A stretch of DNA of 64,000 nt from an uncultured Bacteroidales bacterium (GCA_964387795.1 CAYLYP010000009.1:998-64997); one strand, 5' to 3'; positions 21,707 to 64,000 are shown, numbered from the stretch's first letter. The notes: generated from the letters alone by a model not told the origin. Program-made: numbers and translations.

Positions 21707-21885
21707 TTTATAAGTCATTAGGTTAGGCGAAAACAAAGGTAAGAAATTCAATTTCTTTTTTTTACAGGCATTCTTTGTTTAATAGATTTTAAGAAAATTA
21801 AAAATCTATTGGGCTGTATGGAAATATTTCAGTTGTTCGTTAGGCAGGTTCTTATTAACTTTACAACATCAGGAAAACATATTGT

Positions 21886-45783: not shown

Positions 45784-46215
45784 TGGTATGGTTTTGACCT
45801 GAGTGTGACCACGATTTCATAATTTGTTTGCCGGTCAGGATTCTGCCATTATCCAAACCATCTTCCTGACTATGCTGTGAATTCTGATATAATGAAGCGG
45901 TATTTGATATTTTAAACGATTTATCAACAGAATTTTTTTTTTAATAGTTATTGATTGTTTTGTTGAGTAATTTTAAGATTAAGATTCTGATATCTAATTA
46001 AAACGAAACAATTTTATTATTTATACGCAATGTTTTCAATATAATATAAAAATATCATAAATTTGAGGAATAATTTGAAGAAAGGTCAAACAAATAAATC
46101 CCGTTTTACTAAAAGAATCATAGGATCTCAAATGCTGTCATAACCGGCACTTCATCTGAAACGGGTTTGATGGAAACCATAGTATTTGTTTTTAAGGCAT
46201 TTTTATCCGCTGACA

Positions 46216-48303
46216 ATGAGTAAAAGCATTCTCATCCTATTCATTTTACTGCCTTTGGTCCTTGGAGCCCAAACCTCTCGGGAACAAAGGGAAAGGGATT
46301 CGCTGAATATTATTGTCCTGACAAAAAAAATTGAGGCACAAATAAAGGGAAAAGACCTGTATCTGGCAAGGCAAACCCTTGATACGATATTTACATTGGC
46401 CCAGCTCAACAATTTTATAAAAAAAACCGGTGATTGTTATTTCAACTTAGGCATAATCAGTAAAATTGAGGGCGATACAAGCAATCTGCTTGTAAATCTC
46501 GCTAAAAGCATTGAATATTATATGGCCGATCAGGCCTGGTCTTCAGCAGCAAAAGCCCATACAGCAATTGCCCAAACCTATCTTTCTCTTGAAAATGCAG
46601 CTCTGGCTGAGGACAATTTTTTAGTTTCCCTTGACCTGAGAAAAAGGATACAGGATTCATTAGGTATGGCAAATAATCTAATTAACCTCGGAAGCCTAAG
46701 TTATCAGTCGGGCGCTTATTCAGCAGCAACAGAATACTATCATCAGGCATTGCAAATTTCAAATAGCATCCGCAACAAAAACTTATCCGCATCAATATTA
46801 ATAAACCTTAGCAATGTTCACAGTAAGCTCAGGAATTATGACCAATCGATTGGTCTGCTTCAACAAGCACTTGACATATACAGGGAAACAGGGGACAAAA
46901 AAGGGGAGTCAAATACCTTAATGAGCATTGGGATTTATTTTTATGAAAAAGGATCTTATAAAGAAGCAAAATCTTTTTTAAATCAGGCACTCAATATAAA
47001 AAAAACAATTAAAGAGGATGAGCCCGGAATAAGTAAGACCTACAATAATTTAGGCCTTGTTGCAAAGGCGGAAGGGGATACTGATTTAGCTAATCAGTAT
47101 TATGAACAGGCGCTTATTTATGCAAGAAAAACAAAAGACAGTTACCTGGAAGCAACAATCATAAATAATATCGGATCTGGGAAGCTTGGACAAAACGAAA
47201 CAGAATCTTTGGAATTGCTTATGCAGAGTCTTGCAAAAGCAAAAGAATTAGGTTTAAAAAGGCTTATTCTTGCCAATTATGTTAACCTTCAGGATTACTT
47301 TGCGCGGAAGGGCAATTATAAAAAGGCATTTGAGTATGCAAAATTTGCCCAAGACCTAAACCAGGAGATGCTAAATGAACAGGTTGCGCAGAAAGTCATA
47401 GAACTTCAAACCCAATATGATGCTGAAAAAAAACAGGCAGAAATTGAGTTGTTGCAAAAAGAGGCACAAATACAGGCTTTAAGCCTTTCAAGAAACAGGA
47501 TGTTTACCTATGCAGGGATAGGGTTTTCGATTATGCTATTGATTATCATTGCCATATTGTATTCCAGGTTTTTATTAAAGCAACGGACCAACAAGCAACT
47601 AAAAGAGCTGAACCAAACAAAAGACAGGTTTTTTACAATTATAGCACATGATTTGAAAAATACGCTTAGTGCATTTAAAAACATCTCAGGTTCATTAAGA
47701 AAGAAGCTTTTATTGTTATCTCCATCCCAGGTTGAGATGCTTATAGAAAGCCTTGATGAATCAGCCAAATCGCTCAATGAATTGTTTCAGAACCTTTTGC
47801 AGTGGTCACAATCACAAACGGGAAGCATTAAGCTCAATCCCTCGGTAGTCAATGTAGAAGATTTTATCCAGTCCCTGCTAAACGCTATTGAACAGGAAAG
47901 GGAGATAAAACAAATTGCAATCAAAACAAATATTGAGGAAGGCCTTGAAGTAATTAGTGATCCCAACATCCTGGCGACAGTTACCAGAAACCTTTTATCA
48001 AACTCAATAAAGTTTTCGCCACAAGGGAGTGCTATAGAGATAAGTGTGACAAAGCAAAACAGCAATGTGTTGTTTTCAATTAAAGATCAAGGTTCAGGGA
48101 TTTCAAAGGAAGACATTGGGAAGCTTTTCAGGATAGAAGAGGATGCCAAAAGGATAGGTAATCACGAAAATAAAGGAAGCGGATTAGGCCTTATCATAAG
48201 CAAGGAGCTTATAGAACGAGCCGGAGGAAACATAGGAGCAGAAAGCGAAATTGGGTCAGGGAGTAATTTTTATTTTTTAATTCCGCAAAAACCGCAAAAT
48301 TAA
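46216..48303 (+). CDS. TPR-containing sensor histidine kinase
   Basis: Signal/TM segment, about 8 TPR units, a TM segment, H-box IIAHDLKNTL, DQGSGIS, GSGLGLII. Confidence 0.9.
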   Translation: MSKSILILFILLPLVLGAQTSREQRERDSLNIIVLTKKIEAQIKGKDLYLARQTLDTIFTLAQLNNFIKKTGDCYFNLGIISKIEGDTSNLLVNLAKSIEYYMADQAWSSAAKAHTAIAQTYLSLENAALAEDNFLVSLDLRKRIQDSLGMANNLINLGSLSYQSGAYSAATEYYHQALQISNSIRNKNLSASILINLSNVHSKLRNYDQSIGLLQQALDIYRETGDKKGESNTLMSIGIYFYEKGSYKEAKSFLNQALNIKKTIKEDEPGISKTYNNLGLVAKAEGDTDLANQYYEQALIYARKTKDSYLEATIINNIGSGKLGQNETESLELLMQSLAKAKELGLKRLILANYVNLQDYFARKGNYKKAFEYAKFAQDLNQEMLNEQVAQKVIELQTQYDAEKKQAEIELLQKEAQIQALSLSRNRMFTYAGIGFSIMLLIIIAILYSRFLLKQRTNKQLKELNQTKDRFFTIIAHDLKNTLSAFKNISGSLRKKLLLLSPSQVEMLIESLDESAKSLNELFQNLLQWSQSQTGSIKLNPSVVNVEDFIQSLLNAIEQEREIKQIAIKTNIEEGLEVISDPNILATVTRNLLSNSIKFSPQGSAIEISVTKQNSNVLFSIKDQGSGISKEDIGKLFRIEEDAKRIGNHENKGSGLGLIISKELIERAGGNIGAESEIGSGSNFYFLIPQKPQN

Positions 48304-50594: not shown

Positions 50595-52919
50595 ATGAAA
50601 ACAAGGATCATTTTTATCTTAATGTTAGCGCTTGCAGGGGTTCATACACAAGGCCAATGGCAACAGCTTCATCCAAGGCCAACGGGCATGTCATATTTAA
50701 CAGTATGCGCGCTTGAAGGAAACAAGATTATAACAGGAGCAGGCCCCGGAATTTATCTGGGGGAAATGCATGGTTCAGTGTGGTCAAAAACACTGAACAC
50801 AAGTTATGAGATTTTTGATATGTCATTTGCAAATTCGTTAAATGGAATTGCAGCAGCTGCCGAATCAAGGGTTTTTTATACAAGTGACGGTGGCGCACAA
50901 TGGACCGAAGTGTTCCTAAATGGATATGCAGACATAAAAGGAGTTTCTTTACTTCCTTCAGGAGTTGGTTTCGCTGTTGGAGAAAATGGAATTTATAAGA
51001 CAACTGACTTTGGTCAGAACTGGGCAATAATGGAAACTTCTATCAGTGAATACGAATTGTATAGTGTGTTTGCTTTGGATGAGGATCATATTTCTGTTGT
51101 GGGCGACCAGGATGTTGTGTTCTTAACAGATGACGGGGGTGCAAACTGGAACTCCTATACATTTTCCCAGATGAATAGGATTAGCTGTGTGTACTTTATT
51201 GATGAGGATATTGGCTTTGTTGGGGATGATAAGGGATACCTGATGCGGACAAACAATGGTGGAGAAAGTTGGGAAGAGGTTTTTTATGAAGTTTGGAATT
51301 CGATTTATTCTATAAGGTTTGTTACTCCCGAAACAGGTATAGCTACTTCAACAGACCAGATATTAAAAACCACTGATGGGGGCCAAAGCTGGAATGTTAT
51401 TTCTTTTCCCGAATCAGATAGTTTTTATTCTGTTGCATGGGCAGGAGAAAACACAGTTTATATTGCAGGCACGATGGGTGTATTCAGGTCTTTTGATGCA
51501 GGCCTCAACTGGGAAAACCTTAATCAAAGCACAACAAGGAATGGTTTTGCCACTGCTGCATATTATGGAGAAAATACAATACTTGCTTTTAGCAATGCAT
51601 CAAGCATTATCCGTTCAGAAGACAATGGCTATTCCTGGGAAGAACTTCCTCCTCCTTCTACTGGATATTACCCATATAGAAATGCCTGTGAAGTTAATAA
51701 TGAAGAAATATTTGTCATAACCTTATCCGGTAAAATCCTCAAGACCATTGATGGGGGTGATAGTTGGGAAATTATTGATCCCGGAATTGTTGCCCAGGGT
51801 ATAGATATTATTTTTCAGGATTCCCAAACAGGCTTCATTTCACTTGCCGATGGGAATATTTACCGCACCACAGATGGAGGCCAAAACTGGTCAAGCGTTT
51901 ACACAGGAACCTATAATATAATGAAGATACGCTTTTTTGATTCACAATTAGGGATGGCTGTGGGGGATGCAGGTATAATTCTTAGGACAACCAATGGAGG
52001 GCTTAGCTGGGTCGAAATAGCAAATCCAAACACAAACCTTTACAATGACCTGGTCTTTTTAAATCAGGATACGATTTTCGCTATTGGGAAATGGGGCAGG
52101 ATATACCGCTCGACAGATTCTGGATTAAACTGGCTGCAAATACCTACAGGAAACAATAATGAGTTGGTTTCAATTGTTTTTTTTGATCAAAACACAGCTT
52201 ATATCACAACAAGTGTATTTGGCACTACCTTAAAAACTACGGACGGGGGAAATACATGGGCTTATGACACTTACCTGGGCTATAATTATTCAAAAGCAAT
52301 ACCAACACCCAATGGTTCTATTCTTGTTGTTGGAGGGTATGGGCATATCTCAATACTGCCTGTTGAAGGAAGCTGGAATACGCCATCCAGCCCGGTTGCT
52401 TTGGCAGCCCAATCAATAACAGCAACAGGTTTTACAGCCCATTGGGATGCTTCAGAAGGAGCTAAAAGCTATTTATTGTTTGTGTCAAATGATGGTTTTA
52501 ATTCCTGTATTGAAGGCTATCACCCTTATAGGATCCAAACAACAGAGGCCACAATTACCGGTCTGGAGCCTAATAAAAGCTATGCTTACAAAGTTATTGC
52601 ATCAAATGAAGCGGGTAATTCAGCTTTTTCAAATACAATAGATGTCCAAACCCCTCCACTGGGAATTGGGCAGAAAAATGTTTTTAAAGTAAATGTATAT
52701 CCCAATCCTGCCAAAGAATATATAAGCATAGGGGTCTTTGAAAATGAAAGGGAAGCCTGTGAAATAGCAATAATAAATTATTGTGGTCAGGAATTGGAAA
52801 CATTCCAGCTCCGGGAAGGAACCCGGGCTATTGATGTTAGAAGTTGGCCGGCAGGGATTTATCTGCTAAAAATAACAGATCAAAAAAATACAATCACCAA
52901 AAAGATTGTTGTTCAGTAA
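50595..52919 (+). CDS. BNR/Asp-box repeat (Ycf48/sortilin-like beta-propeller) protein with an FN3-like domain and a T9SS C-terminal sorting domain
   Basis: More than 10 S/T-x-D-x-G-x-x-W boxes (TSDGGAQW, TTDFGQNW, TDDGGANW, TNNGGESW, TTDGGQSW …). C-terminal VYPNPA…GIYLLKITDQKNTITKKIVVQ. Confidence 0.85.
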   Translation: MKTRIIFILMLALAGVHTQGQWQQLHPRPTGMSYLTVCALEGNKIITGAGPGIYLGEMHGSVWSKTLNTSYEIFDMSFANSLNGIAAAAESRVFYTSDGGAQWTEVFLNGYADIKGVSLLPSGVGFAVGENGIYKTTDFGQNWAIMETSISEYELYSVFALDEDHISVVGDQDVVFLTDDGGANWNSYTFSQMNRISCVYFIDEDIGFVGDDKGYLMRTNNGGESWEEVFYEVWNSIYSIRFVTPETGIATSTDQILKTTDGGQSWNVISFPESDSFYSVAWAGENTVYIAGTMGVFRSFDAGLNWENLNQSTTRNGFATAAYYGENTILAFSNASSIIRSEDNGYSWEELPPPSTGYYPYRNACEVNNEEIFVITLSGKILKTIDGGDSWEIIDPGIVAQGIDIIFQDSQTGFISLADGNIYRTTDGGQNWSSVYTGTYNIMKIRFFDSQLGMAVGDAGIILRTTNGGLSWVEIANPNTNLYNDLVFLNQDTIFAIGKWGRIYRSTDSGLNWLQIPTGNNNELVSIVFFDQNTAYITTSVFGTTLKTTDGGNTWAYDTYLGYNYSKAIPTPNGSILVVGGYGHISILPVEGSWNTPSSPVALAAQSITATGFTAHWDASEGAKSYLLFVSNDGFNSCIEGYHPYRIQTTEATITGLEPNKSYAYKVIASNEAGNSAFSNTIDVQTPPLGIGQKNVFKVNVYPNPAKEYISIGVFENEREACEIAIINYCGQELETFQLREGTRAIDVRSWPAGIYLLKITDQKNTITKKIVVQ

Positions 52920-55097: not shown

Positions 55098-55808
55098 TTA
55101 TTTTAGTGAGACTTTTTCAATCCATTTAAAGGTAATGAAAAGAAGAACTGCATGGTAAAGAATACCGATAGTCCAGAAAAGCATAAAATGAAAATTATTG
55201 TCAATTACAATGAATGATTTATAAATCCAATAACTTGGAATTATCCCAAACAAATATTCAAAATTGCCCTGGATAAAAAAAGCAGGCAAAGGTAAAACCA
55301 TTATAAAATTTAGCATTTTGGCCCAGGTCATACCTTCAATTTTGTTTTTTGCCATAAAGGCCGGAATACATGCACTCATGGGTGCTATTGCTGATGCCAG
55401 TATTGCCAGTAATGGGGCTTTTAACTCGTTCCCGGTCAACATGCCAGACACCAGGAGCATCATCGTTGAGGCTATTACTCCAAACAAAAAGATTATTGTC
55501 ATTCGCAATCTGATAATTAACGAAAAAGAAATCGGCAAAATATGCAATGTTTGGATCAGGTTTTCATCTTTCTCATCCAGGATCACAAAACTTATTGCCA
55601 TACCCGGCATTGCAGCGGATATTAAACAAAAAGCCCCAAGAATCAAAGGCTTATACTGTACTACAATTGGCCACTGATTGGAAAGTAATGGCCACCCGAT
55701 GAATAATAACGCAGTAATAATTACCGGAACAATTAAAATCATAAACAGGGAAGGATCCCGAAAGATATTCTTAAGGTCGGTTTTAATAATTGTGAAGTAT
55801 CTTTTCAT
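55098..55808 (-). CDS. ABC-2 type exporter permease
   Basis: 236 aa, about 6 TM segments, last gene of the TetR-ATPase-permease-permease operon. Confidence 0.75.
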   Translation of the reverse strand: MKRYFTIIKTDLKNIFRDPSLFMILIVPVIITALLFIGWPLLSNQWPIVVQYKPLILGAFCLISAAMPGMAISFVILDEKDENLIQTLHILPISFSLIIRLRMTIIFLFGVIASTMMLLVSGMLTGNELKAPLLAILASAIAPMSACIPAFMAKNKIEGMTWAKMLNFIMVLPLPAFFIQGNFEYLFGIIPSYWIYKSFIVIDNNFHFMLFWTIGILYHAVLLFITFKWIEKVSLK

Positions 55809-55879
55809 TATAAAACAGTTTTTGGTGGAGCTAATGGTTTTTAAATATCCAGGTTTTAACCAATTGCGTATGAATTGGA

Positions 55880-56572
55880 TTATTTGTTAATATTGTTTAC
55901 AAACAACCGTCTGGCAAGCATCCAGGCGAAAAAAGTACAAAGCGGGAGGTAGGCATAAGCGTATATGATTTCCCAGCTTTCATAAACACCCCCTAAAGCG
56001 TAGTCAAAGAGTATAAGGGAGGCCTGGGTAGGGAAAATGTACCATATTAACCAATCCGTTAGCTCAAAAAAGTTTAAAAACGGCAAGCAGGCAGGCATAA
56101 AAGCAAGAGGGAGTACTAGAACATATTGGTTAAAAGTATTTACTTTTGAAACCCCTGCATAGCCTAAAAAAACAAACAAAAGAGAAGAAAACAAAACAGT
56201 CCACACAAAAGGCATCATATTGAAATGAAACCCCTTGGCAGCAATTATCATTGCAACACTACATATCAATGCCAGAAAGGCTAAACAAAGCGCTTTTGAC
56301 CACAAATATGCATCGGGTGAAACAGGGCTTACCCAGATCGCTTTGATTGTTCCGCTCATTTTTTCAAATAACACCAATACGCCGGTAAACATAAAACCAA
56401 GCATTACCGGGTCGGTAAATATTAAAATGATGTACAATACATCAGCCCCTTCCATGGCAAGTAATTTAAATGCAGCAATATATAGTGCCGTAATGATAAT
56501 AGATATTGTAAGGATATTGTTCCTTGCAATAAGAAGGAAATCAAGTTTTAATAAAGCAGTAAATCTTTTCAT
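55880..56572 (-). CDS. ABC-2 type exporter permease
   Basis: About 6 TM segments. Start at the internal ATG (MKRFTALLKLDF), 10 nt after the ATPase stop. Confidence 0.75.
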   Translation of the reverse strand: MKRFTALLKLDFLLIARNNILTISIIITALYIAAFKLLAMEGADVLYIILIFTDPVMLGFMFTGVLVLFEKMSGTIKAIWVSPVSPDAYLWSKALCLAFLALICSVAMIIAAKGFHFNMMPFVWTVLFSSLLFVFLGYAGVSKVNTFNQYVLVLPLAFMPACLPFLNFFELTDWLIWYIFPTQASLILFDYALGGVYESWEIIYAYAYLPLCTFFAWMLARRLFVNNINK

Positions 56573-56582
56573 GGCTATTTCA

Positions 56583-57437
56583 TTATTGCACAAGCTTATG
56601 GCCGGTGGTTTGGATAAAAATGTCCTCAAGGCTTGCTTCTTTTGAATGAAGTGAACGAATATAGTGGGTATTGATTAAATTCAGGAAATCCTGGTTAGCG
56701 CCAAGTCCATCCATTGGAAATTCGAGGGAATGAATGCCATTGTTTTCATATTCTACTTGTAGACTGCGTCTTGCATATTTTTGCTTTAAATTCCAGGGTG
56801 AATCAATGAGCACCAGTTTGCCACCTGCCATAAATGCCACACGGTCGCACAGCTCATCAGCATCGTGCATATTATGGGTTGTAAGAAAAACTGTTTTCCC
56901 CTGTTCCTTAAACTTTAAAATGATGTTTTTTAAAATCCTTGCATTAAGTGGATCCAATCCACTTGTAGGTTCATCAAGAAAAAGAATATCCGGTTTATGT
57001 AACATGGCACGAATAAAGTTTAAACGCATTCTCATACCCTTTGAGAACTCCCCAACTTTTTGATTGGCATTGTCTTTCAGACCAACCATTTCGAGTAAGG
57101 CCATCGGGTCTTCACATTCTTTATCATAAAAGGATTTGAAGAAATTAAGGTTCTCCAGTGCTGTCAACCTTGAATAATGGTTTGGAAGTTCAAAACCAAC
57201 ACCAATATTCTGAAAGAAAGCAGAGGAACAAGCAGGAGATTTAAAGCCATTAATATGAACAAGCCCTTCATACTTTTTCAATAAACCAATAAGGATTTTT
57301 TGGGTAGTGCTTTTTCCTGCCCCACTGGGTCCCAGAAAACCAAATATCTCACCCCTTGAAATATCAAAGTTTAGCTGATCAATAGCTTTTGTCTCAGAGC
57401 CTGGATAAGAAAAACAAAGGTTTTGAACTGTTATCAT
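56583..57437 (-). CDS. ABC transporter ATP-binding protein
   Basis: Walker A GPSGAGKST, signature-like FSKGMRMRL, Walker B ILFLDEPTSGLD, H-loop TTHNM. Confidence 0.95.
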   Translation of the reverse strand: MITVQNLCFSYPGSETKAIDQLNFDISRGEIFGFLGPSGAGKSTTQKILIGLLKKYEGLVHINGFKSPACSSAFFQNIGVGFELPNHYSRLTALENLNFFKSFYDKECEDPMALLEMVGLKDNANQKVGEFSKGMRMRLNFIRAMLHKPDILFLDEPTSGLDPLNARILKNIILKFKEQGKTVFLTTHNMHDADELCDRVAFMAGGKLVLIDSPWNLKQKYARRSLQVEYENNGIHSLEFPMDGLGANQDFLNLINTHYIRSLHSKEASLEDIFIQTTGHKLVQ

Positions 57438-57485
57438 ATATTTTACGTTTATACCGACCGACCGGTATGTGTATATTTAAAAAAA

Positions 57486-58085
57486 TTAGATTTCAACTAG
57501 GTCACACAAAAAATGAATCATTTGGCGTTCCGTAACAAAGATTGATGCATAGTCTGAAAGCATCACACCATGGAGTTCCACCCCATCCATCATACAACTA
57601 ATCTGTCGGGCAAAAGCGTTTTCATCAACCGATTGCTTTATTTCCCCTCTCATTTTGGCGTATGAAATCATTCTGACAAAAATCTGGCTTTCATATTCCA
57701 GATATGTTTTCATCTTTTCTTTCATGTCCGGCAAATATTGGATGGCCTGGAACAAATACATGAAAAAATTTACTTCAGGTACTTCTCCTCCCGAATAATC
57801 AGCAAACGTTTTAAATGCCTGGTCTTTTCCATCAATAATCCGAAGGAGGTTCTCTCTTAAACTTAATTGATCGTCAGGAGAGATATTTATTTTCTCAAAC
57901 ATTCCAAAGAAAAATGTATTCACTGTTTCAGAGAATAATTGCTCCTTACTAACAAAGTAATGATAAAAAGCCCCTTTGCTTAATCCGCTTTCATTCACCA
58001 GGCGACTCATTGTAATATCCCTGTAACCCTCTTTAATAAAGAGTTTAAACGCTGTAAAGAGAATATGCTGCCTTGTATCATTCAT
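57486..58085 (-). CDS. TetR/AcrR family transcriptional regulator
   Basis: RQHILFTAFKLFIKEGYRDITMSRLVNESGLSKGAFYHYFVSKEQL, the N-terminal TetR HTH. Confidence 0.9.
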   Translation of the reverse strand: MNDTRQHILFTAFKLFIKEGYRDITMSRLVNESGLSKGAFYHYFVSKEQLFSETVNTFFFGMFEKINISPDDQLSLRENLLRIIDGKDQAFKTFADYSGGEVPEVNFFMYLFQAIQYLPDMKEKMKTYLEYESQIFVRMISYAKMRGEIKQSVDENAFARQISCMMDGVELHGVMLSDYASIFVTERQMIHFLCDLVEI

Positions 58086-58215
58086 GTAAACCGACCGTTT
58101 GGTATGCAAAGATATGTCTTTTTTGTTTATTTCAATCATACAGATGAAAAAAAATAAGCTTTAGGAATAACCAGGCATCATTTAATATTGAATTTTAATG
58201 AGAATAAAATTCTTT

Positions 58216-58605
58216 TTACTCGTTTTTAGCATCAAGAGGCCTATAAATGCACCTCATCATATAATCACCCGAAGGATATTTTGATTTTTCAACATAAAGT
58301 GTTTCGGGAGTAAGTTCAATAAGAAACCATATCTCAGAAATATTCTGAATAAATATTTGCCTGGAATCCTTTTTTGACCAGTAATCATTAATATCAGGGC
58401 CAATGGATACTCTTCCATCTTTATAAAATACAGTAGGGGCAGAGAGGTTATAATTCGTCAACTCAGGATTTACATCAATAATATCAGGAATGCCCCAAAT
58501 GGTGCCGGTAAGGTAATCAATGTTGAATTCAAAATCAGGGCTTTCCTTGCATGAAGCATGGAATAGCATTGAAAGAAACAACAATAGAATGATTTTCTTT
58601 GCCAT
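58216..58605 (-). CDS. small lipoprotein (P4 of the envelope locus)
   Basis: An internal ATG gives MAKKIILLLFLSMLFHASCKE (lipobox). It lies 10 nt downstream of the P3 stop. Confidence 0.6.
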   Translation of the reverse strand: MAKKIILLLFLSMLFHASCKESPDFEFNIDYLTGTIWGIPDIIDVNPELTNYNLSAPTVFYKDGRVSIGPDINDYWSKKDSRQIFIQNISEIWFLIELTPETLYVEKSKYPSGDYMMRCIYRPLDAKNE

Positions 58606-58615
58606 ATCCTTTTTA

Positions 58616-61600
58616 TTAACGATCGATGACAATAATTTCAACCCTTCTGTTTTTCTGACGGTTTTCGGGGCTATCATTTGGGGCAATAGGACGAATATCT
58701 TCAAAGCCAACACTTTCGATATTCGAAAATCCTTTTTGCATCATATACCTCATAATCTGATTTGCCCTGTCAACAGAAAGTCCTTTGTTGTCAATGGTTT
58801 CAACAGCGTCTGAATGTCCGGCAATCTGGATTTTAACATTCGGGTTCTGTCTTAATTGATTGATGATCCTATCAAGTTCAGGATAAGCTTCATCGGGAAT
58901 ATCAGCACTGCCTGATGCAAATTTCAGGGTTTTAAGCTCAAAGCGCGAACCAACGACAATGCTTTCAAGAAGGATGTCCTTTTCAGCATCCTGAATAGTG
59001 AGAAGTTGTTCTAAAATCAGTTTATCAGAAAAACTCCAATAACCCTGGGCAGAGACCACAATTGTATAATTGGGCGAAGTAGTAAAGCTTGTAGAATACT
59101 TTCCGGTAGTTCGGTCTGAAGCTGTTCTTTCGATTAAAGAATTTCGTGTTTGATCAAAGATTTCAATCTGGGCCCTAATGGGTTGAAGTGTATTTGCATC
59201 CTTAACAGTCCCGCTAAGGTTGGTTCTTCCCAATCTTCTTATTTCGGCCTGAAGCTCATTAAATCCAGGGGCAAATTCTATTTGACGCCTGATTTCATCA
59301 AAAATAAAATTCACTTCAAACTGTTTAAACCCATTAAGATTTACCCTGTAATTATTTTGTCTTAAGTGAAAATGCTCAGTAAAAATGTTATTAATAGAAA
59401 CAATATAATTATCAACGCTAGGGACGTACATTTCCCAATAGCCTTTTGAGTCTGTAAGGGTTGATGTTGCACGCCCTTTACTGTCGATGGCTGTAATTTT
59501 AATATTACCTACTTCTATCGTACCAATGTTTGATAGTTTGCTACGGTTTAAAACCAATTGACCATAAACCTTATTTCGTTCCAGGAAGGGCATGTATTCT
59601 GTGTGGTCATTTTTGTGATGGACAAATATTTCGCTCTTCTCCGGCATAAACTTACCCTGGTCATTTCCAATACTCTCAATAGAAATACGATAAAAGCCTT
59701 CGGCAAGGTTTTCATAAGAAACAATGCCATCTGGCCCGGATAACAATTTATTTGTTATTAAAGCAGCTTTATTGTCATAGCTTTTTTCTTCTTCATCAAG
59801 CTTAGATGGGTCGATACTTTCAATGCTGACCAGGATATCCCTTACACCTGGTTCATTGTATTCATGGCTGAGGTTGCCATTTAAATCCTTAAATAACTCA
59901 ACTTTTAAATCGTGGTATTTTATTCTTGGCTGGTTCCAGTCAAAAGTTTTTTGAACCCTTGCTTCAAAATAGGTGTTCGAATATTTATACTTATTTTCTG
60001 TTATTAGATCTGTTGTTACCTGATAGCTTAAAGTATTTAAGAAGGAAGCAGTGATGCCATAGTTTAAAAACACATCAAGCTGGTTGTTCAGGTTGAACCT
60101 TGTTGTTTTAAAAGAAAAATCATGTAAGAAATTTAGTTTGCTTGAAAAGCGAACGATATCCTTAAAAATAAACTTTTCAAAATAAGGCATTACCCTAACG
60201 CTCTGGGCGCCATAATTAAAATACAACTGTGAAATCTCCTGGTTTATTGAATACGGGCCATAAAAGTAATTGAAATATATCCCCCAGAAATTTCTCCTGA
60301 TATTTATGCTAAACAAACTATTAAACATACTTTTGGACCTCATTGAATTCCTTATGGCAACCTCATTTTGAACAATATCTTCGGGAATTGAATAGCCATC
60401 AATAAAAGAATACCCCAATGTCAATGAAGGGTTAAAGAACATATTATGGCTTTCGGTAATCTTTAAACCAAGGTTGATTTTTGCTGAATGACTGCTGAAA
60501 GGGTTCTCTCCATCAAAATAGTAATATGAATTCGTTGTTTTTCTTTCATAAATTGGCCCCCCATACAACCACATATTCCCATTGATGTTTTTTCTTACTG
60601 TAAGCCCGGCAAGGGAATTTTGGTGATATTTATTTGCCGAAATCCCCGTATTGGTTTCAATCACAGGTTTATAATTTCTGTTATATACGCTTAGTTCATA
60701 AAACAAATTATTTTTATCATATGTATTAATGGTTCCGGAAAAGTCATGGCGACCGGAATTTATCCCATAATAGTTTATTGATCCTAATTGTTCCCTGGCC
60801 CTGACATTAAAATTCCTGAACTTCCCATTATAGTCAAGATAAAGTCCATATCCAAGCAAAGGATTATCAAGTAATTCATAATCCACCTCGCTAAGGCCAA
60901 GATCCACCATCATTCTTTGGTTTTGCCCAACTGAAATAACACCTTTGATGCCTGCAAGGTGTGATTTGTTACGAAGTGAATCATTACGACTATACCCATA
61001 CCTTGCTGAAATCCTAAAAGGGCTTACCGTTTCAGAAAACTCTCCACCTACAGACATGATAGGCCTGAAAGTATTTTTTCCTCCAGCTATACTTATCCGA
61101 TAATTGTTTTTAAAAAGATAAGATGTTTCAATACCCCTTCCTAATCCATATTTAAAACCGATACCCCTTACATCGCCCAAAACAAGCCTGAATGAAGGTG
61201 AATTATAACCTATCCTCATACGGCTTTGCCTGTAAACATCTTCCATGGTCTTATCGCCATATTTTCTAAAATAAAAAAAGACATCACGGTTTTTTGGAAA
61301 TAAAACAATTCCTTCAACACCTCCGGTATAATAGGCTTTTTGTTTGCTGAAAATGTTCTGTGCGGCCAGATCAACAACAAGCATCTTCTCAGATATCGGA
61401 ATATTATATTTGTAATGATTTGTAAGGTGATTAAACCAAAAAGATGAGCCAAACTCTGTTTCCTGGGTTGTGCCTAAAAGGTCAACCCTGTATAAACTAC
61501 GGTTTTCAACATTATAATCCGTAATAAGCTTTACTGGTATTTTTATCGTGGTATCTGATTTGGCGGGTATAATAACATTCATCAGCATCACATTCTCTTT

Positions 61601-62176
61601 TTCATTTTCAACAATTACGTTGTTTGTTGATGAGAATTGTAAATAAACCAATTCTGTAATATTCCCTTCATTAATAATTTTAAAAGAGATGTTGCTTTCT
61701 CCACTTTGTTGATCAAAATAAGACATCCTCGATATCGGCCTGAAAGACAACTTTGATAATCGAGGAACCTTAACAAAGCAATATGCATTGCAAATATTCT
61801 CGCCATCCCTTGAATTTATGGCAGCAATGATTGAATATCCTATCTCCCCTTCTACGCCCTTTGAGGTTGCTGCCCTGACAGGAATTAAAACCGAGTCACC
61901 CGGATTGATAAGATAAGACCTTGATTCATCTGCAATTGTTGACCAACCTATTGGAACGCTTAGCTCTACCAAAACCTCCTGCCGTTCGTTACCTTGATTA
62001 TTAATTATTAATACATTAAAGAATGTAGCATCTGTTTTTATTATAAGGCTTTCTTTTCTAAATCTGGCAGATATTTTTCTTTCATTTCCATTTGTTCCAA
62101 TAGAGGCCTGAGAAAATCCACTCAGGTAAGTTGCAATAAAACAAGCAATTAATAAATATCTCTTAACAAATCTCAT
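58616..62176 (-). CDS. 1186-aa envelope protein (P3): signal peptide, two Ig-like (NEW3/CARDB-like) domains, a predicted beta-barrel region, CarboxypepD_reg-like domains and an OmpA peptidoglycan-binding domain
   Basis: The OmpA_C signature is clear (KIQIAGHSDAVETIDNKGLSVDRANQIMRYM…NRRVEIIVI). The N-terminus has VLVELSVPIGWS…INPGDSVLIPVRA. The middle ~450 aa are rich in Y/G/N/R with alternating hydrophobicity. Confidence 0.85.
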   Translation of the reverse strand: MRFVKRYLLIACFIATYLSGFSQASIGTNGNERKISARFRKESLIIKTDATFFNVLIINNQGNERQEVLVELSVPIGWSTIADESRSYLINPGDSVLIPVRAATSKGVEGEIGYSIIAAINSRDGENICNAYCFVKVPRLSKLSFRPISRMSYFDQQSGESNISFKIINEGNITELVYLQFSSTNNVIVENEKENVMLMNVIIPAKSDTTIKIPVKLITDYNVENRSLYRVDLLGTTQETEFGSSFWFNHLTNHYKYNIPISEKMLVVDLAAQNIFSKQKAYYTGGVEGIVLFPKNRDVFFYFRKYGDKTMEDVYRQSRMRIGYNSPSFRLVLGDVRGIGFKYGLGRGIETSYLFKNNYRISIAGGKNTFRPIMSVGGEFSETVSPFRISARYGYSRNDSLRNKSHLAGIKGVISVGQNQRMMVDLGLSEVDYELLDNPLLGYGLYLDYNGKFRNFNVRAREQLGSINYYGINSGRHDFSGTINTYDKNNLFYELSVYNRNYKPVIETNTGISANKYHQNSLAGLTVRKNINGNMWLYGGPIYERKTTNSYYYFDGENPFSSHSAKINLGLKITESHNMFFNPSLTLGYSFIDGYSIPEDIVQNEVAIRNSMRSKSMFNSLFSINIRRNFWGIYFNYFYGPYSINQEISQLYFNYGAQSVRVMPYFEKFIFKDIVRFSSKLNFLHDFSFKTTRFNLNNQLDVFLNYGITASFLNTLSYQVTTDLITENKYKYSNTYFEARVQKTFDWNQPRIKYHDLKVELFKDLNGNLSHEYNEPGVRDILVSIESIDPSKLDEEEKSYDNKAALITNKLLSGPDGIVSYENLAEGFYRISIESIGNDQGKFMPEKSEIFVHHKNDHTEYMPFLERNKVYGQLVLNRSKLSNIGTIEVGNIKITAIDSKGRATSTLTDSKGYWEMYVPSVDNYIVSINNIFTEHFHLRQNNYRVNLNGFKQFEVNFIFDEIRRQIEFAPGFNELQAEIRRLGRTNLSGTVKDANTLQPIRAQIEIFDQTRNSLIERTASDRTTGKYSTSFTTSPNYTIVVSAQGYWSFSDKLILEQLLTIQDAEKDILLESIVVGSRFELKTLKFASGSADIPDEAYPELDRIINQLRQNPNVKIQIAGHSDAVETIDNKGLSVDRANQIMRYMMQKGFSNIESVGFEDIRPIAPNDSPENRQKNRRVEIIVIDR

Positions 62177-62191
62177 TTTTTCTATTACCCA

Positions 62192-62707
62192 TTAAGGACT
62201 TGGCCTGACTTCAAACACCAATATCAGGTTATAATAATCAGGTGGATTGCCAATTAACTCCTTGTTTGTTCCACAACGATAACTAACTTTTATTTTATGG
62301 GTTCCATAATCGGCATTTGATAATAAACGTTTTGCCTGGGATTCACCAAATCCCGGAAATTGAGAAGGATCAATGGCTCCACCGGCTGTGCTTTCAACCA
62401 CTTCCACTTCAAGATAGTCAAGATCAAGCTGATGGTAATCGCCCTGAAAGTAATCATCTTCTGCCCAGAAATACAAATCCCATTTTTTATTGAAATCAGC
62501 TGAGTCAACAAAAAAAACATCAAAGCTGGTCCAACCTTCATATTTAATCCCATCGTGATAGTGTTTCATGCTACTCACCACAAAGGGGACACTTCCACCG
62601 CTGACTGGCCTGAAACGGATATAAACCTCCTTGCTGCTTTGTGCAAAACAGCATATCGAAACAATACTCAACCAAAGAAAAATAAAAACTCTCCCCAACA
62701 AGGACAT
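62192..62707 (-). CDS. secreted beta-rich protein (P2), paralogue of P1
   Basis: Signal peptide MSLLGRVFIFLWLSIVSICCFAQS. Motifs shared with P1: VSGG[NS]xxF, [IV]x[WY]xCGT[TN], D[RY]Y…L.[LF]…P. Confidence 0.65.
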   Translation of the reverse strand: MSLLGRVFIFLWLSIVSICCFAQSSKEVYIRFRPVSGGSVPFVVSSMKHYHDGIKYEGWTSFDVFFVDSADFNKKWDLYFWAEDDYFQGDYHQLDLDYLEVEVVESTAGGAIDPSQFPGFGESQAKRLLSNADYGTHKIKVSYRCGTNKELIGNPPDYYNLILVFEVRPSP

Positions 62708-62798
62708 GTTTAATTGTTTAATACATGAAACGAACATGTTTGCAAATTTAATACTATGGCTTCAACAAGCTCAGCCACCTTAACACTTACAAGCTCTG

Positions 62799-62831
62799 GA
62801 AAGGCGACTGAGCCTCTCGAAGTCACCTTTC
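62799..62831 (-). other. 11-bp stem hairpin (one mismatch) in the P1-P2 spacer
   Basis: GAAAGGCGACT-gagcctctcga-AGTCACCTTTC. No U-tract. Confidence 0.4.
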
Positions 62832-62850
62832 TGAATAGCAAACATGGAGT

Positions 62851-62889
62851 TTCATCCGACCATTAACAAAAATTTTTTTTACGGATGAA
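62851..62889 (-). other. 8-bp stem hairpin just downstream of the P1 stop
   Basis: TTCATCCG … CGGATGAA with a 23-nt A/T-rich loop. Confidence 0.4.
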
Positions 62890-62954
62890 AATTAAGAGTA
62901 AACAATAATATGGGGCTGGAGAAGCCCCAAACCCCATATTTTAAATTTTCTTGA

Positions 62955-63569
62955 TCAGGGAGTAACAGGTGAAAGGATGAGAAAGATATTGGTAGCATAT
63001 CTGTCAGCAGCAGCTTGTTGTTCCAATATTGAAGTTGCTGCCATTGTCCCACCAGCAGGTGTAGTGCCGCATTCCCAATGAATGGTAAAATTATTTGTTT
63101 CAACGCCACCGGCATTACTTGTTGTTCCATTATATCCAACCAGTATAGTGCCAGGAATGTTGTTTAATCCAAGGGGAGCAGTTGGGTCATCAGCTGGGAT
63201 ATCATAATTGGCAGCAGCAGTAACAGAGGTTACATGATAGCCAATATTGTTTAATGCCAAAGTATTAGGAGTACCAGCATTATCAGTACCAACAAGGGTA
63301 GCATCCTCAGTATACATTTCTACATTCCAGTCAACGGATGATGCAACAGTAAAGACTGTATTGTAATTAGAAGAGTTGGAAATTCCATTCTGGTAATCAG
63401 AGAGGGTGTTAAAGTTAAATTCAATATTTCCTCCCGATACCACATTTAAGCGAAGTATTGAGTTAAGGGTAACAGATACAGGGATTACTGCACGGTCATC
63501 AATCCCCTGGGCAAATGATGTGTTGGCATACATTAAGATACCAAGCAAAGGTAGAATTAAACGTTTCAT
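62955..63569 (-). CDS. secreted beta-rich protein (P1), candidate major subunit
   Basis: Signal peptide MKRLILPLLGILMYANTSFAQG from the internal ATG (63569). The mature part is rich in N/T/S/G/V and ends in …DRYATNIFLILSPVTP. Confidence 0.7.
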   Translation of the reverse strand: MKRLILPLLGILMYANTSFAQGIDDRAVIPVSVTLNSILRLNVVSGGNIEFNFNTLSDYQNGISNSSNYNTVFTVASSVDWNVEMYTEDATLVGTDNAGTPNTLALNNIGYHVTSVTAAANYDIPADDPTAPLGLNNIPGTILVGYNGTTSNAGGVETNNFTIHWECGTTPAGGTMAATSILEQQAAADRYATNIFLILSPVTP

Positions 63570-63756
63570 TTTTTTGATTTTGTTAAACTGGTTTGAAATA
63601 TCCATTAAAAAAAAGACAATTATCTCTTTCTTCAAGTAAAATTGGGTCTAATTTAAGGATTTTAAAATTATTTGGCACATATTTTTTTACATCTATCAAA
63701 AAACAGGAGAAAATACATTGTTTAACCGGTAGTTTTACACGAATTTCCAGTGGAAA

Positions 63757-64000
63757 TCACCAATTATCCCCTATTTTAAATCCGATTATGAGCACATCAT
63801 CGATTTGGTTTTCCTTTGCTTCCATCCAGCTAAACAAGGTTTCCTTAAGGATTTTTTCCTGTTCGTCTGCTGGAAGCTGATGGATTTTTAACAATAGGTC
63901 TTTGAGGTTCTTCAAAAGGAATTTCTTTTGATTTTCTCCCCCAAACTGGTCAATATATCCATCAGAAAAAATATAAAACCAGGTTGGTTTGTCAACCTGT
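63757..64000 (-). CDS. C-terminal end of a SpoIIE/PP2C-type serine phosphatase; 5' part lies outside the window
   Basis: Absent from the ORF track. The reverse complement in frame from 63999 reads QVDKPTWFYIFSDGYIDQFGGENQKKF…ENQIDDVLIIGFKIGDNW*, with the stop at 63757..63759. The pattern F.FSDGY.DQFGG…Q.DD.L.IG.K is the typical SpoIIE-domain C-terminus. Confidence 0.7.
   Translation of the reverse strand, partial: QVDKPTWFYIFSDGYIDQFGGENQKKFLLKNLKDLLLKIHQLPADEQEKILKETLFSWMEAKENQIDDVLIIGFKIGDNW

Follow-up and report, generated by a model that had tools for sequence, protein, structure and literature searches.

A Bacteroidales locus predicted to encode a donor-strand pilus with a TLP-1-like major subunit and an usher-like outer-membrane protein

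Described fibres and the locus under study

The pilins of type V pili (FimA/Mfa1) start out as lipoprotein precursors that an Arg/Lys-specific protease processes, and they are joined through a C-terminal donor strand. TasA fibres, Tafi, archaeal bundling pili and cannulae are donor-strand polymers that form without chaperones, and TapA nucleates TasA. To our knowledge, Bacteroidota are not known for chaperone-usher pili. The closest described structure to the main protein of this study is TLP-1a/b, 8-nm tubular fibrils from pond water whose cryo-EM structures (PDB 9IKJ, 9IKK), obtained by CryoSeek in 2024, were presented as an exemplar of structure-first discovery (PMC11494351). TLP-1 assembles by N-terminal donor-strand exchange, in which strand beta1 near the N-terminus is exchanged between protomers n and n+4, and its authors did not identify the organism, gene or machinery of the fibrils; its best predicted relatives were from Flavobacteriales, and the N-terminal strand of a relative was disordered in the monomer prediction (PMC11494351). 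No follow-up on TLP-1 was found in the searchable literature.

The locus lies in a 64,000-nucleotide stretch from an uncultured Bacteroidales bacterium (GCA_964387795.1 CAYLYP010000009.1:998-64997), hereafter the window. The most likely product of its genes is a surface fibre, with a main subunit predicted to have the TLP-1 fold. The four minus-strand genes of the initial annotation (P1 to P4, Table 1), the gaps of 15 nt (P2-P3) and 10 nt (P3-P4) and the structured P1-P2 spacer of 247 nt were all confirmed on the raw sequence, and the chosen ATG starts match the invariant Met1 in homologue alignments (A1, A6).

Table 1. Features of the locus, in positions of the window
Feature	Position	Strand	Description
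TPR-SpoIIE (PP2C) sensor phosphatase gene, last 80 codons	63760..63999	minus	3' end, rest off window; upstream neighbour of P1
P1	62955..63569	minus	204 aa; ORF confirmed; predicted TLP-1-like major fibre subunit
P1 signal peptide, residues 1-20/21		minus	followed by N-terminal extension
P1 residues 22-35 (GIDDRAVIPVSVTL)	63465..63506	minus	predicted N-terminal donor strand
Structured spacer	62708..62954	minus	terminator-like hairpin 62911..62929 right after P1 stop, plus long near-perfect hairpin
P2	62192..62707	minus	171 aa; ORF confirmed
P3	58616..62176	minus	1186 aa; ORF confirmed
P3 Ig-like (NEW3-like) domains x2, residues 35-250	61427..62074	minus	DSSP on model; predicted periplasmic
P3 barrel region, residues 266-763	59888..61381	minus	~24-27 long antiparallel strands, pLDDT ~85-95; predicted transmembrane beta-barrel
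P3 beta-sandwiches x3 (SdrD_B / CarboxypepD_reg-like), residues 781-1070	58967..59836	minus	DSSP, Pfam; predicted periplasmic
P3 OmpA-like peptidoglycan-binding domain, residues 1086-1177	58646..58921	minus	Pfam OmpA, E 2.4e-15
P4	58216..58605	minus	129 aa; ORF confirmed

Synteny was followed in 80 loci, counted at species level, whose hosts include Bacteroidales, Flavobacteriales, Salinivirgaceae and Chlorobiota, among others. P1, P2 and P3 were collinear in each related locus of sufficient length (65/65), with P3 after P2 in 65/65, and P2 was recognized 3' of P1 in 65/69, the remaining loci holding an ORF of matching size. Two further genes, both outside the window, were co-conserved, one encoding a PapD/MSP/WxLIP-like two-domain protein (52/59 loci) and the other a MORN-repeat protein (48/56), whereas P4 was present in only 22/47. 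Conservation of the neighbourhood as a unit of four genes was thus found for P1-P2-P3 but not for P4, and the conserved core consists of P1-P2-P3 and the two off-window genes rather than of the four genes in the window.

Predicted major and minor subunits

P1 belongs to a family of 376 representatives among 1.84 billion, and none of its 299 homologues is named or bears a Pfam domain. Neither P1 nor P2 matched any Pfam or NCBIfam family; among 37 P1-like and 44 P2-like proteins there was no Pfam match, and pilin families in particular gave none up to E <= 10, in agreement with the initial annotation, which had not recognized the locus as a characterised system. The AlphaFold (AF2) model of P1 (pLDDT 88.7) was compared with the PDB by Foldseek, in which the only strong matches were TLP-1b and TLP-1a (E 1.3e-6 and 3e-6, probability 1.0; TM 0.58-0.59 query-normalised and 0.51-0.52 target-normalised, 16-17 % identity in the structural alignment). 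The runners-up FimA, TasA, CfaB and PapH, donor-strand pilins too, came at E ~1e-2 (the next match at 1.2e-2), four orders of magnitude behind. By computation, P1 is shown to be secreted and to share its predicted fold with the TLP-1a/b fibril protomer. In correction of the earlier view, the main subunit is not wholly without precedent, the fold having already been solved in those fibrils (PMC11494351).

At the sequence level, TLP-1b/a were again the best PDB matches of the P1 profile, with marginal E values (0.6 in one search and 0.035/0.093 in another; 0.019 for a single sequence) obtained against TLP sequences derived from density, and these matches always covered the same N-terminal 57-61 residues. 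In the reverse direction, a 61-aa TLP-1 fragment, likewise read from density, retrieved no natural protein. In these marginal matches the N-terminal motif V-x-V-x-x-x-L ... L-x-L ... F-x-F ... Y-x-x-G ... SS-x-x-W of P1 lines up with TLP-1. In both proteins the signal peptide is cleaved off, and monomer predictions leave the N-terminal strand disordered. Flavobacteriales, the group of TLP-1's predicted relatives, carries this locus type as well. On the other hand, mature P1 has ~183 aa compared with 236-237 aa in TLP-1, and TLP-1 is known as a fibre without genes, whereas the P1 system is known here from genes alone.

The segment of P1 directly behind the signal peptide, residues 22-35, is the best-conserved stretch of the family, is unstructured in the monomer model (pLDDT ~62), and aligns in the marginal profile match with TLP-1 residues 8-14, VTVTMDL, close to the N-terminus, to which the cryo-EM study assigns donor strand beta1 (PMC11494351). 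P1 and P2 are paralogues (hhalign of the family alignments: probability 99.65 %, E 5e-25), and P2 bears a 14-residue deletion directly behind its signal peptide, removing exactly this segment. We therefore predict that the strand relevant to polymerisation is N-terminal, and we read P2 as a tip or initiator subunit, a cap without a donor strand. The initial annotation had stressed the C-terminal strand instead; an alternating-hydrophobic C-terminal strand can indeed be read by eye in both translations, together with N-terminal signal peptides ending in A/S-Q and lacking a lipobox, as it had described, and the strand for polymerisation is now predicted to be the P1 extension that P2 lacks.

The ends of the signal peptides also bear on whether P1 and P2 are cargo or parts of another Bacteroidota system, such as T9SS or type V pili, that merely adjoin an OmpA-family gene. 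The genome does have a T9SS, as the same scan detected Por_Secre_tail in a window protein (50595..52919), and the C-terminal module of P3 is PorE-like. However, P1-P4 carry no T9SS CTD (Por_Secre_tail / TIGR04183), so T9SS cargo was rejected; Gln21/Gln23 is invariant at the signal-peptide end of P1/P2 with no conserved Cys there, so a type V pilus was rejected for want of a lipobox; and the strict P1-P2-P3 collinearity reaches Chlorobiota. We regard this explanation as very improbable, and the earlier view that the locus does not fit type V pili, T9SS cargo or Sus loci was upheld. Type V pili do share the phylum and the principle of strand-exchange surface fibres; they differ from P1/P2, which have a signal-peptidase-I site with Gln at +1, and from P1, in which the extension is N-terminal.

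The P1-P2 spacer folded with an MFE of −81.6 kcal/mol compared with −50.9 +/- 4.3 for shuffled sequences (z = −7.07, 0/200 shuffles as good). Among distinct P1-P2 spacers of related loci, 58/64 folded with z < −2, so that a stable stem-loop is conserved although its sequence is not, and no Rfam family matched. The order of major subunit, hairpin and assembly genes that had been noted before is accordingly real and conserved, and we read the spacer as an attenuator that sets the ratio of major to minor subunits.

An usher-like outer-membrane protein and a chaperone-like partner

P3 has 34 full-length homologues, and its AF2 model reached an overall pLDDT of 79. The architecture proposed earlier, two Ig-like domains, a barrel-like centre, CarboxypepD_reg (residues 987-1050) and OmpA, was borne out by Pfam and by the model. 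The OmpA_C-like domain PF00691 scored 57.1 bits against a cut-off of 27.2, and the OmpA domain matched OmpA, MotB and Pal domains in the PDB (best E 1.7e-20); this identifies one domain only and not the function of P3. Among the P3 family members, CarboxypepD_reg was found in 35/35, SdrD_B in 31/35, NPCBM_assoc/NEW3 in 7/35 and Usher (PF00577) in 0/35. Residues 35-250 hold many invariant alignment columns and showed weak profile similarity to the chaperone-like family described below (probability 50 %).

In Foldseek, the best bacterial structural matches of P3 were FimD (E 1.7e-10 to 4e-9), PapC (1.1e-8) and the PapC pore (3.7e-6), and it also matched the barrels of TonB-dependent transporters (BtuB) and LptD (E ~1e-6 to 3e-6); the centre is modelled as barrel-like. 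The global TM-scores between P3 and FimD were low (0.17-0.30) and hhalign against E. coli FimD was null (probability 0.4 %); the resemblance to FimD/PapC is structural only. In structural terms the initial annotation was nevertheless wrong to report no FimD-like usher, since P3 itself is usher-like (FimD/PapC E 1e-10 to 1e-8). From the model we predict that P3 is an usher-like assembly and secretion platform in the outer membrane, anchored to peptidoglycan.

The correspondence with classical and archaic chaperone-usher pili (Fim, Pap, Csu/SCPU) extends over the locus. In both, the Ig fold of the major pilin is incomplete and is preceded by an N-terminal extension that one subunit lacks (FimH/PapG, here P2); the outer-membrane protein combines Ig-like domain(s), a ~24-strand barrel and more Ig-like domains (FimD/PapC, here P3); most loci encode a periplasmic partner with two Ig domains; and a stem-loop lies behind the major subunit gene. 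The differences are that Pfam gave no Fimbrial, SCPU, PapD_N/C or Usher match at curated levels, that hhalign against FimC/FimD was null, that P3 has two N-terminal and three C-terminal Ig domains and a fused OmpA anchor, with no apparent plug domain, and that the chaperone-like gene is divergent, paired with the MORN-repeat gene, and missing near this window.

P3 also shares the C-terminal tandem of CarboxypepD_reg and OmpA_C with PorE and other OmpA-family proteins, over only ~200 of its 1186 residues. Its curated matches are confined to OmpA-type domains and CarboxypepD_reg, including sub-threshold ones to CHU_0125 and PorE, and Ig-like folds are frequent in envelope proteins that form no fibre, which would suit an OmpA-family tether or porin (of the CHU_0125 'outer membrane integrity' type, or like the PorE C-terminus) with P1 and P2 as Ig-fold accessories that bind it, as monomers or in a surface layer, on the periplasmic or the outer side. 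The NCBIfam matches, however, are far below their cut-offs (PorE 43.9 vs 600) and cover only the C-terminal 100-190 residues; P1 is structurally closest to a solved fibril protomer, with pilins making up all the next matches; and both the conserved P1 extension precisely deleted in P2 and the high-expression layout with its hairpin are signatures of donor-strand systems. We consider the absence of a fibre improbable.

The co-conserved chaperone-like family (250-280 aa), whose gene is transcribed divergently together with the MORN-repeat gene in related loci, matched EfmWxLIP1 of Firmicutes (PDB 9I25/9I1Y) over its full length and both domains (E 8.7e-5); WxLIP is predicted to complete the incomplete beta-sandwich of its partner with a donated strand (PMC10599100). 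Pfam gave PapD_N below threshold in 4/34, MSP in 20/34 and also ASH-type matches, and hhalign against FimC was null. The likeness has its limits, since WxLIP belongs to monoderms, carries a TM helix at its C-terminus and has unrelated partner proteins, and the relative found here is encoded outside the window. The statement of the initial annotation that no PapD-like chaperone is present holds for the 64-kb window, in which neither PF00345/PF02753 nor the chaperone-like gene was found, but not for related loci, in most of which such a gene adjoins the operon.

Assembly models and accessory genes

A donor-strand-exchange pilus of a class without an earlier genetic description, chaperone-usher-like and highly divergent, is on balance the reading we favour for this locus. 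P1 and P2 would cross the inner membrane via Sec, signal peptidase I would cleave them just ahead of the conserved Gln, and their incomplete Ig folds would be kept competent in the periplasm by the PapD/MSP/WxLIP-like protein as the candidate or, alternatively, by the periplasmic Ig-like domains of P3. The P3 barrel would serve as the passage of the subunits through the outer membrane, and the OmpA domain of P3 would tether the machine to peptidoglycan. Because P2 cannot donate a strand, it would enter first and cap the distal end, and P1 would then polymerise, the strand at about residues 22-35 completing the fold of the earlier subunit, into a TLP-1-like fibre. The hairpin behind P1 would cut read-through, and far more P1 than P2, P3 and P4 would therefore be made.

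Subunits could instead assemble by donor-strand exchange on the surface, independently of chaperone and usher, with P3 as an export pore or wall-anchored base and P2 as a nucleator like TapA. The window has no chaperone-like gene, nor does the contig of the nearest relative (92 % nucleotide identity) have one upstream of the SpoIIE gene, and TasA, Tafi, cannula and bundling-pilus subunits, which are donor-strand-complemented Ig/jelly-roll proteins, are among the P1 fold matches, although weakly (E 0.02-0.6). The pairing of the major subunit P1 with a minor paralogue, P2, recalls TasA and TapA; these systems have no outer-membrane barrel partner. In addition, the n/n+4 exchange of TLP-1 (PMC11494351) implies four covalently unlinked chains, which are hard to reconcile with a single-chain usher pore and suit lateral self-assembly better than single-file extrusion. 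Against self-assembly, the PapD/MSP/WxLIP-like gene is linked in most related loci, the host is diderm and its subunits still need passage through the outer membrane, and the periplasmic Ig-like domains of P3 are arranged in usher fashion in the model. We judge this route unlikely, though less so than a locus that makes no fibre.

More broadly, and with somewhat less than even confidence, we propose that a previously unrecognised class of donor-strand pili, widespread in Bacteroidota and extending to Chlorobiota, builds TLP-1-type tubular fibres with a core made up of the major pilin, a cap pilin that lacks the strand, an usher-like OmpA-anchored barrel, a WxLIP/PapD-like partner and a MORN-repeat protein, none of which belongs to known chaperone-usher families by sequence. 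A TPR-PP2C sensor, in some genomes with a SiaC-like protein, may control it, and n+4 exchange would need secretion that is not single-file. If this is true, the orphan TLP-1 fibrils gain a candidate gene family, a host phylum and conserved assembly genes, Bacteroidota have another donor-strand pilus system beside type V pili, and a chaperone-usher-like solution exists with a built-in peptidoglycan anchor, posing the mechanistic question of how a four-chain (n+4) donor-strand polymer is exported. A homologous locus (L064) on a MAG labelled Draconibacterium orientale offers a candidate path to a cultivable host. Metagenomes that contain the family come from sediment, groundwater, marine, digester and gut samples, and it may therefore matter for aggregation and biofilm formation of abundant uncultured Bacteroidales.

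Upstream of P1, the partial TPR-SpoIIE gene encodes a fragment 60 % identical to the C-terminus of its orthologue in a related locus (L010). In the full-length orthologue Pfam recognizes TPR and SpoIIE; the protein starts with a signal peptide, has a single TM helix around residue 310 and contains a PP2C domain. A SpoIIE gene lies upstream of P1 in 43/63 species loci and a SiaC-like protein is encoded in 20/53; this transmembrane TPR-PP2C phosphatase probably controls production, with the SiaC-like protein alongside it in many genomes. P4, which matched neither Pfam nor the PDB, has an invariant Cys19 followed by K/D/E-rich residues (alignment A6) and is by its sequence a small lipoprotein and a lineage-specific accessory, which would be optional and located in the outer membrane. 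The partial TPR-SpoIIE gene and the lipoprotein nature of P4 were absent from the initial annotation, as were the N-terminal donor-strand segment of P1 and the P1/P2 paralogy. An alternative ATG for P2 at 62737 would shorten the P1-P2 spacer to 217 nt.

P1 and its relation to TLP-1 fibrils

The four minus-strand ORFs of the locus were read from the window sequence and fell exactly where the initial annotation had placed them, with the same intergenic gaps of 247 nt (P1-P2), 15 nt (P2-P3) and 10 nt (P3-P4); their ATG starts coincided with a Met1 that is invariant across the aligned homologues. By searching a collection of 5.8 billion proteins, 299 homologues of P1 were obtained, all unnamed or 'hypothetical' and without Pfam domains, from Bacteroidales, Salinivirgaceae and other Bacteroidota MAGs, and when 1.84 billion cluster representatives were searched exhaustively with a profile, only 376 relatives emerged. 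One homologue (P0083, 54 % identity) is listed under an anaerobic protist, Anaeramoeba ignava, in a EukProt transcriptome; its source was presumably a Bacteroidota bacterium, either associated or a contaminant. Pfam and NCBIfam scans of P1, P2 and P4 gave no match. Comparison of 37 P1-like and 44 P2-like proteins with Pfam at E <= 10 gave scattered chance matches only, SCPU, DUF4402, Fimbrial and TasA being absent.

Coordinates of the features discussed (positions in the window, in the related loci L001 and L088 from other genomes, or in P3 residues)
Feature	Location	Strand	Remark
P1, predicted major fibre subunit	62955..63569	-	ORF
P2, paralogue of P1	62192..62707	-	ORF; alternative ATG at 62737
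P3, predicted outer-membrane protein	58616..62176	-	ORF
P4, small lipoprotein	58216..58605	-	ORF
Terminator-like hairpin	62929..62911	-	start of P1-P2 spacer
Second hairpin, long, almost perfect	62740..62835	-	~40 pairs; in spacer upstream of P2
TPR-SpoIIE gene, last 80 codons	63760..63999		upstream of P1; 60 % identical to an orthologue
TetR regulator, ABC ATPase, two ABC-2-type permease genes	55098..58139	-	directly downstream of P4
BNR/sortilin-repeat protein	50595..52919	+	fn3 domain and Por_Secre_tail T9SS sorting domain
Chaperone-like gene	L001:6605-7408, L088:6496-7296	-	
MORN gene	L001:5389-6600, L088:5325-6491	-	
SiaC-like gene (PF09345)	L001:4980-5411, L088:4900-5328		close to TPR-SpoIIE (PP2C) gene
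P3 signal peptide	residues 1-22		ending at Gln23; AF2 model
P3, two beta-sandwich domains	residues 35-250		AF2 model
P3, ~24-27 long antiparallel strands	residues 266-763		AF2 model, pLDDT ~90
P3, three beta-sandwich domains	residues 781-1070		AF2 model
P3, OmpA-like domain	residues 1086-1185		AF2 model

In the P1 family alignment, the signal peptide ended at an invariant Gln, which we take to reflect the 'Q-rule' of Bacteroidota signal peptidase I, and the most conserved stretch, (V/I)DDRAVIPVAVTLNSILRLNVxSGGNIEFNFNTL, followed directly; a conserved strand, DRYxTNVFLxL, was located at the C-terminus. The AF2 model of P1 was confident (pLDDT 88.7) except for residues ~20-38, which had no secondary structure. 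Foldseek comparison of this model with the PDB gave two strong matches, TLP-1b (9IKK, E 1.3e-6) and TLP-1a (9IKJ, E 3e-6), with TM 0.58-0.59, and the next matches, at E >= 1e-2, were donor-strand pilins (FimA, FimI, TasA, CfaB, PapH, Tafi, cannula CanA and bundling pili). Independently, the sequence profile of P1 found the same two TLP-1 chains as its best PDB matches, aligning P1 29-87 with TLP-1 8-64 (E 0.6 for the P1 family alignment and E 0.035 for a broader P1-type alignment). Single Flavobacteriales P1-like sequences searched against the PDB provided no bridge to TLP-1 (no match for that of locus L076, E 0.019 for that of L085), and a 61-aa TLP-1b fragment found no candidate in the 5.8-billion-protein collection. 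TLP-1a and TLP-1b, reconstructed from filtered pond water, are tubular 8-nm fibrils (rise 11.5-12.3 Å, twist 75-78°) in which the Ig-like fold of protomer n is completed by the N-terminal strand of protomer n+4; their authors could match them to no gene, organism or machinery, the best predicted relative coming from a Flavobacteriales bacterium (PMC11494351). Our literature search returned no later paper settling the gene, organism or machinery. Judging from its model, P1 would be a TLP-1-like pilin.

The P2 paralogue and the spacer after P1

For P2, 75 orthologues were gathered from neighbouring genes, 44 of which were aligned. The profile-profile comparison with P1 gave a probability of 99.65 % (E 5e-25) over the whole length, and the single clean difference was that the 14 residues following the P1 signal peptide (GIDDRAVIPVSVTL) had no counterpart in P2, which begins at the equivalent of the next strand of P1, (R/L)IxVxSGGxVxFNxNSLxKY. 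Searches of PDB sequences with the P2 and P4 profiles gave nothing meaningful. In donor-strand systems, the distal tip is occupied by a subunit that accepts but does not donate a strand, as in the case of FimH and PapG; since P2 lacks the predicted donor strand, it would by analogy be a distal tip or cap subunit, and with n+4 exchange approximately four P2-type subunits would cap a fibre, with no free strands left.

The P1-P2 spacer had been described as structured, and folding bore this out (MFE -81.6 kcal/mol versus -50.9 ± 4.3 for dinucleotide shuffles, z = -7.07). It contains a terminator-like hairpin and a distinct, long one, the latter kept only in the 92 %-identical contig L087. The idea that the spacer is a repeated element was rejected, as no second copy was present in the window and conservation was confined to L087. 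An Rfam search of window positions 57000-64000 gave no family matching the spacer; a 'throat-1' match inside P1, on the wrong strand and sub-threshold (20.7 bits versus 124.4), was dismissed as chance. Among 64 distinct related spacers, 58 had a stable stem-loop 3' of the P1 stop codon (median z -4.75 versus shuffles), the sequences themselves not being conserved. The fim and pap operons have the same stem-loop arrangement after the major subunit and produce far more major subunit than assembly proteins; by analogy, the post-P1 hairpin may set the ratio of major subunit to assembly proteins.

P3, P4 and the conserved neighbouring genes

When one genome per species was scanned, P1 relatives turned up in 211 genomes, of which 80 loci were retrieved (Bacteroidales, Salinivirgaceae, Tenuifilaceae, Draconibacterium, Flavobacteriales, Salibacteraceae, 'Sphingobacteriia' and Chlorobiota); a MAG named Draconibacterium orientale bears one homologous locus, L064. 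Gene presence was counted only in loci with enough flanking DNA. P3 followed P1 in 65/65 loci, P2 was present in 65/69, and the same-strand order P1<P2<P3 was kept in 65/65; the four P2-negative loci still had ORFs of 188-230 aa and 996-1160 aa after P1. Co-conservation held for P1-P2-P3 and not for P4 (22/47), which was confined to the clade closest to the window. The P4 product, a small lipoprotein, has an invariant Cys19 followed by K/D/E-rich residues, a combination resembling the Bacteroidota lipoprotein surface-export signal; it had no Pfam or PDB relatives, and a BSAP-5i immunity match (19.8 bits, cut-off 150) was rejected as signal-peptide or lipobox noise. In Salinivirgaceae, its place after P3 was taken by two genes, one DsbA/thioredoxin-like and the other for a small, Cys-rich lipoprotein unrelated to P4 (L003:14818-16006, L005:14842-15967).

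Only 34 full-length homologues of P3 were found (33-93 % identity), and curated families detected only its C-terminal CarboxypepD_reg and OmpA domains. Foldseek of the P3 model (overall pLDDT 79) ranked long multi-Ig ciliary proteins at the top (7SOM and 9IJJ chains, E 1.5e-12 to 6.7e-11), matches presumably driven by the tandem Ig-like domains, with CEP192 SPD-2 further down (~6e-8). The best bacterial matches were pilus ushers, namely FimD (9FW9_D, 9FY9_D, 9BOG_D and 3RFZ_B, E 1.7e-10 to 4e-9, ~890 aligned columns) and PapC (7LHH_C, E 1.1e-8; translocation pore 2VQI, E 3.7e-6), and the BtuB, BauA and LptD barrels matched at E 3e-6 to 9e-6. Global TM-scores were low (0.17-0.30), as expected because the domain arrangement differs. 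The Usher Pfam family matched none of 35 P3 members and hhalign of the P3 profile with E. coli FimD was null. The initial annotation, which had seen no FimD-like usher, was therefore right at the level of sequence but not of structure: P3 is, according to its model, usher-like in architecture and not in sequence. An even-stranded barrel combined with a periplasmic OmpA domain would place all Ig-like domains of P3 in the periplasm, as in ushers. We did not adopt the idea that its N-terminal Ig domains might be a fused chaperone-like protein, the sole basis of which was an hhalign probability of 50 % over 84 columns.

The main surprise was a divergently transcribed gene pair, nearly as conserved as the P1-P2-P3 core, encoding a chaperone-like protein (52/59 loci) and a MORN-repeat protein (48/56). 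The former is secreted, 250-280 aa long and composed of two Ig-like domains; the latter is secreted, 300-400 aa long with MORN_2 repeats, and always adjoins the former. The pair lies immediately upstream of P1 in Flavobacteriales and is replaced in Salinivirgaceae by a divergent gene for a 371-374-aa protein without Pfam matches. The match of the chaperone-like family profile to Enterococcus faecium WxLIP1 covered both domains (E 8.7e-5), and sub-threshold Pfam matches were obtained to fn3_5 (32/34), WxLIP_PGBD (24/34), MSP (20/34) and PapD_N (4/34, best 1.8e-4), as well as to Cep192 and ASH-type domains; the PapD/MSP/ASH class of folds is what these matches have in common. For WxLIP itself, donation of a strand that completes the beta-sandwich of its WxL partner has been predicted (PMC10599100). 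From fold class and synteny, we infer that the 250-280-aa protein is a candidate periplasmic chaperone; hhalign of its profile with E. coli FimC was null.

Neither this gene nor the MORN gene is encoded within the 64-kb window. L087, the nearest relative (92 % nucleotide identity), has pheT and other genes upstream of SpoIIE instead; in L088, the relative after that (P1 80 %), the set is complete, comprising SiaC-like, MORN, chaperone-like, SpoIIE, P1, P2, P3 and P4. The earlier statement that no PapD-like chaperone is present accordingly applies to the window but not to most of the related loci, if the candidate is counted. The lack of the chaperone-like gene here, together with the n+4 geometry of TLP-1, favours the main rival explanation, self-assembly without a chaperone in which P3 would be no more than a pore or anchor; we nevertheless regard it as unlikely.

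The TPR-SpoIIE protein (43/63 loci) combines a signal peptide and a periplasmic TPR region with a single TM helix and a PP2C domain. Together with the SiaC-like protein (20/53) it forms a pair which we take to recall the Pseudomonas SiaA/SiaC phosphatase-substrate switch controlling aggregation.

Proposed assembly and genomic surroundings

We propose that the locus probably encodes a donor-strand-exchange pilus, in which P1 would be the fibre subunit, P2 the cap, P3 an outer-membrane platform anchored to peptidoglycan and the WxLIP/PapD-like protein, where present, the periplasmic holder; the post-P1 hairpin would govern subunit stoichiometry, and regulation would fall to the TPR-PP2C sensor, joined by the SiaC-like protein in loci that have it. 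The roles given here to P3 and to the chaperone-like protein are far less secure than the fold relation of P1 to TLP-1 and the relation between P1 and P2. A non-fibre envelope complex fits the data poorly and is improbable, and a connection with T9SS or type V pili, also a poor fit, is highly improbable. None of these readings explains how n+4 exchange, with four separate donor-strand chains, would be reconciled with the one chain extruded by an usher-type pore.

The subunit fold (seen in orphan fibrils by cryo-EM in a single 2024 study), donor-strand exchange and the usher-like barrel principle were already known. What is new is the gene family with its host phylum, the operon and its conservation, the paralogue lacking the strand, the usher-like protein fused to OmpA, and the accessory and regulatory genes linked to them; none of these parts belongs by sequence to the chaperone-usher families. 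The question of what makes TLP-1 fibres, and how, becomes directly testable through this locus.

The window is an ordinary chromosomal stretch (~36 % GC) of a T9SS-bearing Bacteroidota, with leuS, groEL, sensor kinases and Por_Secre_tail cargo; the BNR/sortilin-repeat protein shows the organism to possess a type IX secretion system. The TetR/ABC genes downstream of P4 look like a separate operon, and the same genes also follow the locus in L088. A sigma-70 promoter scan, uninformative for Bacteroidota promoters, gave 19 sites, fewer than the 22.6 in shuffles. A 782-aa ORF at 19403..21751 (-) had no Pfam match at E <= 1e-5, and the product of 46186..48303 (+) is a TPR-histidine kinase with a TPR region similar to that of TPR-SpoIIE (tblastn E 1.8e-7).
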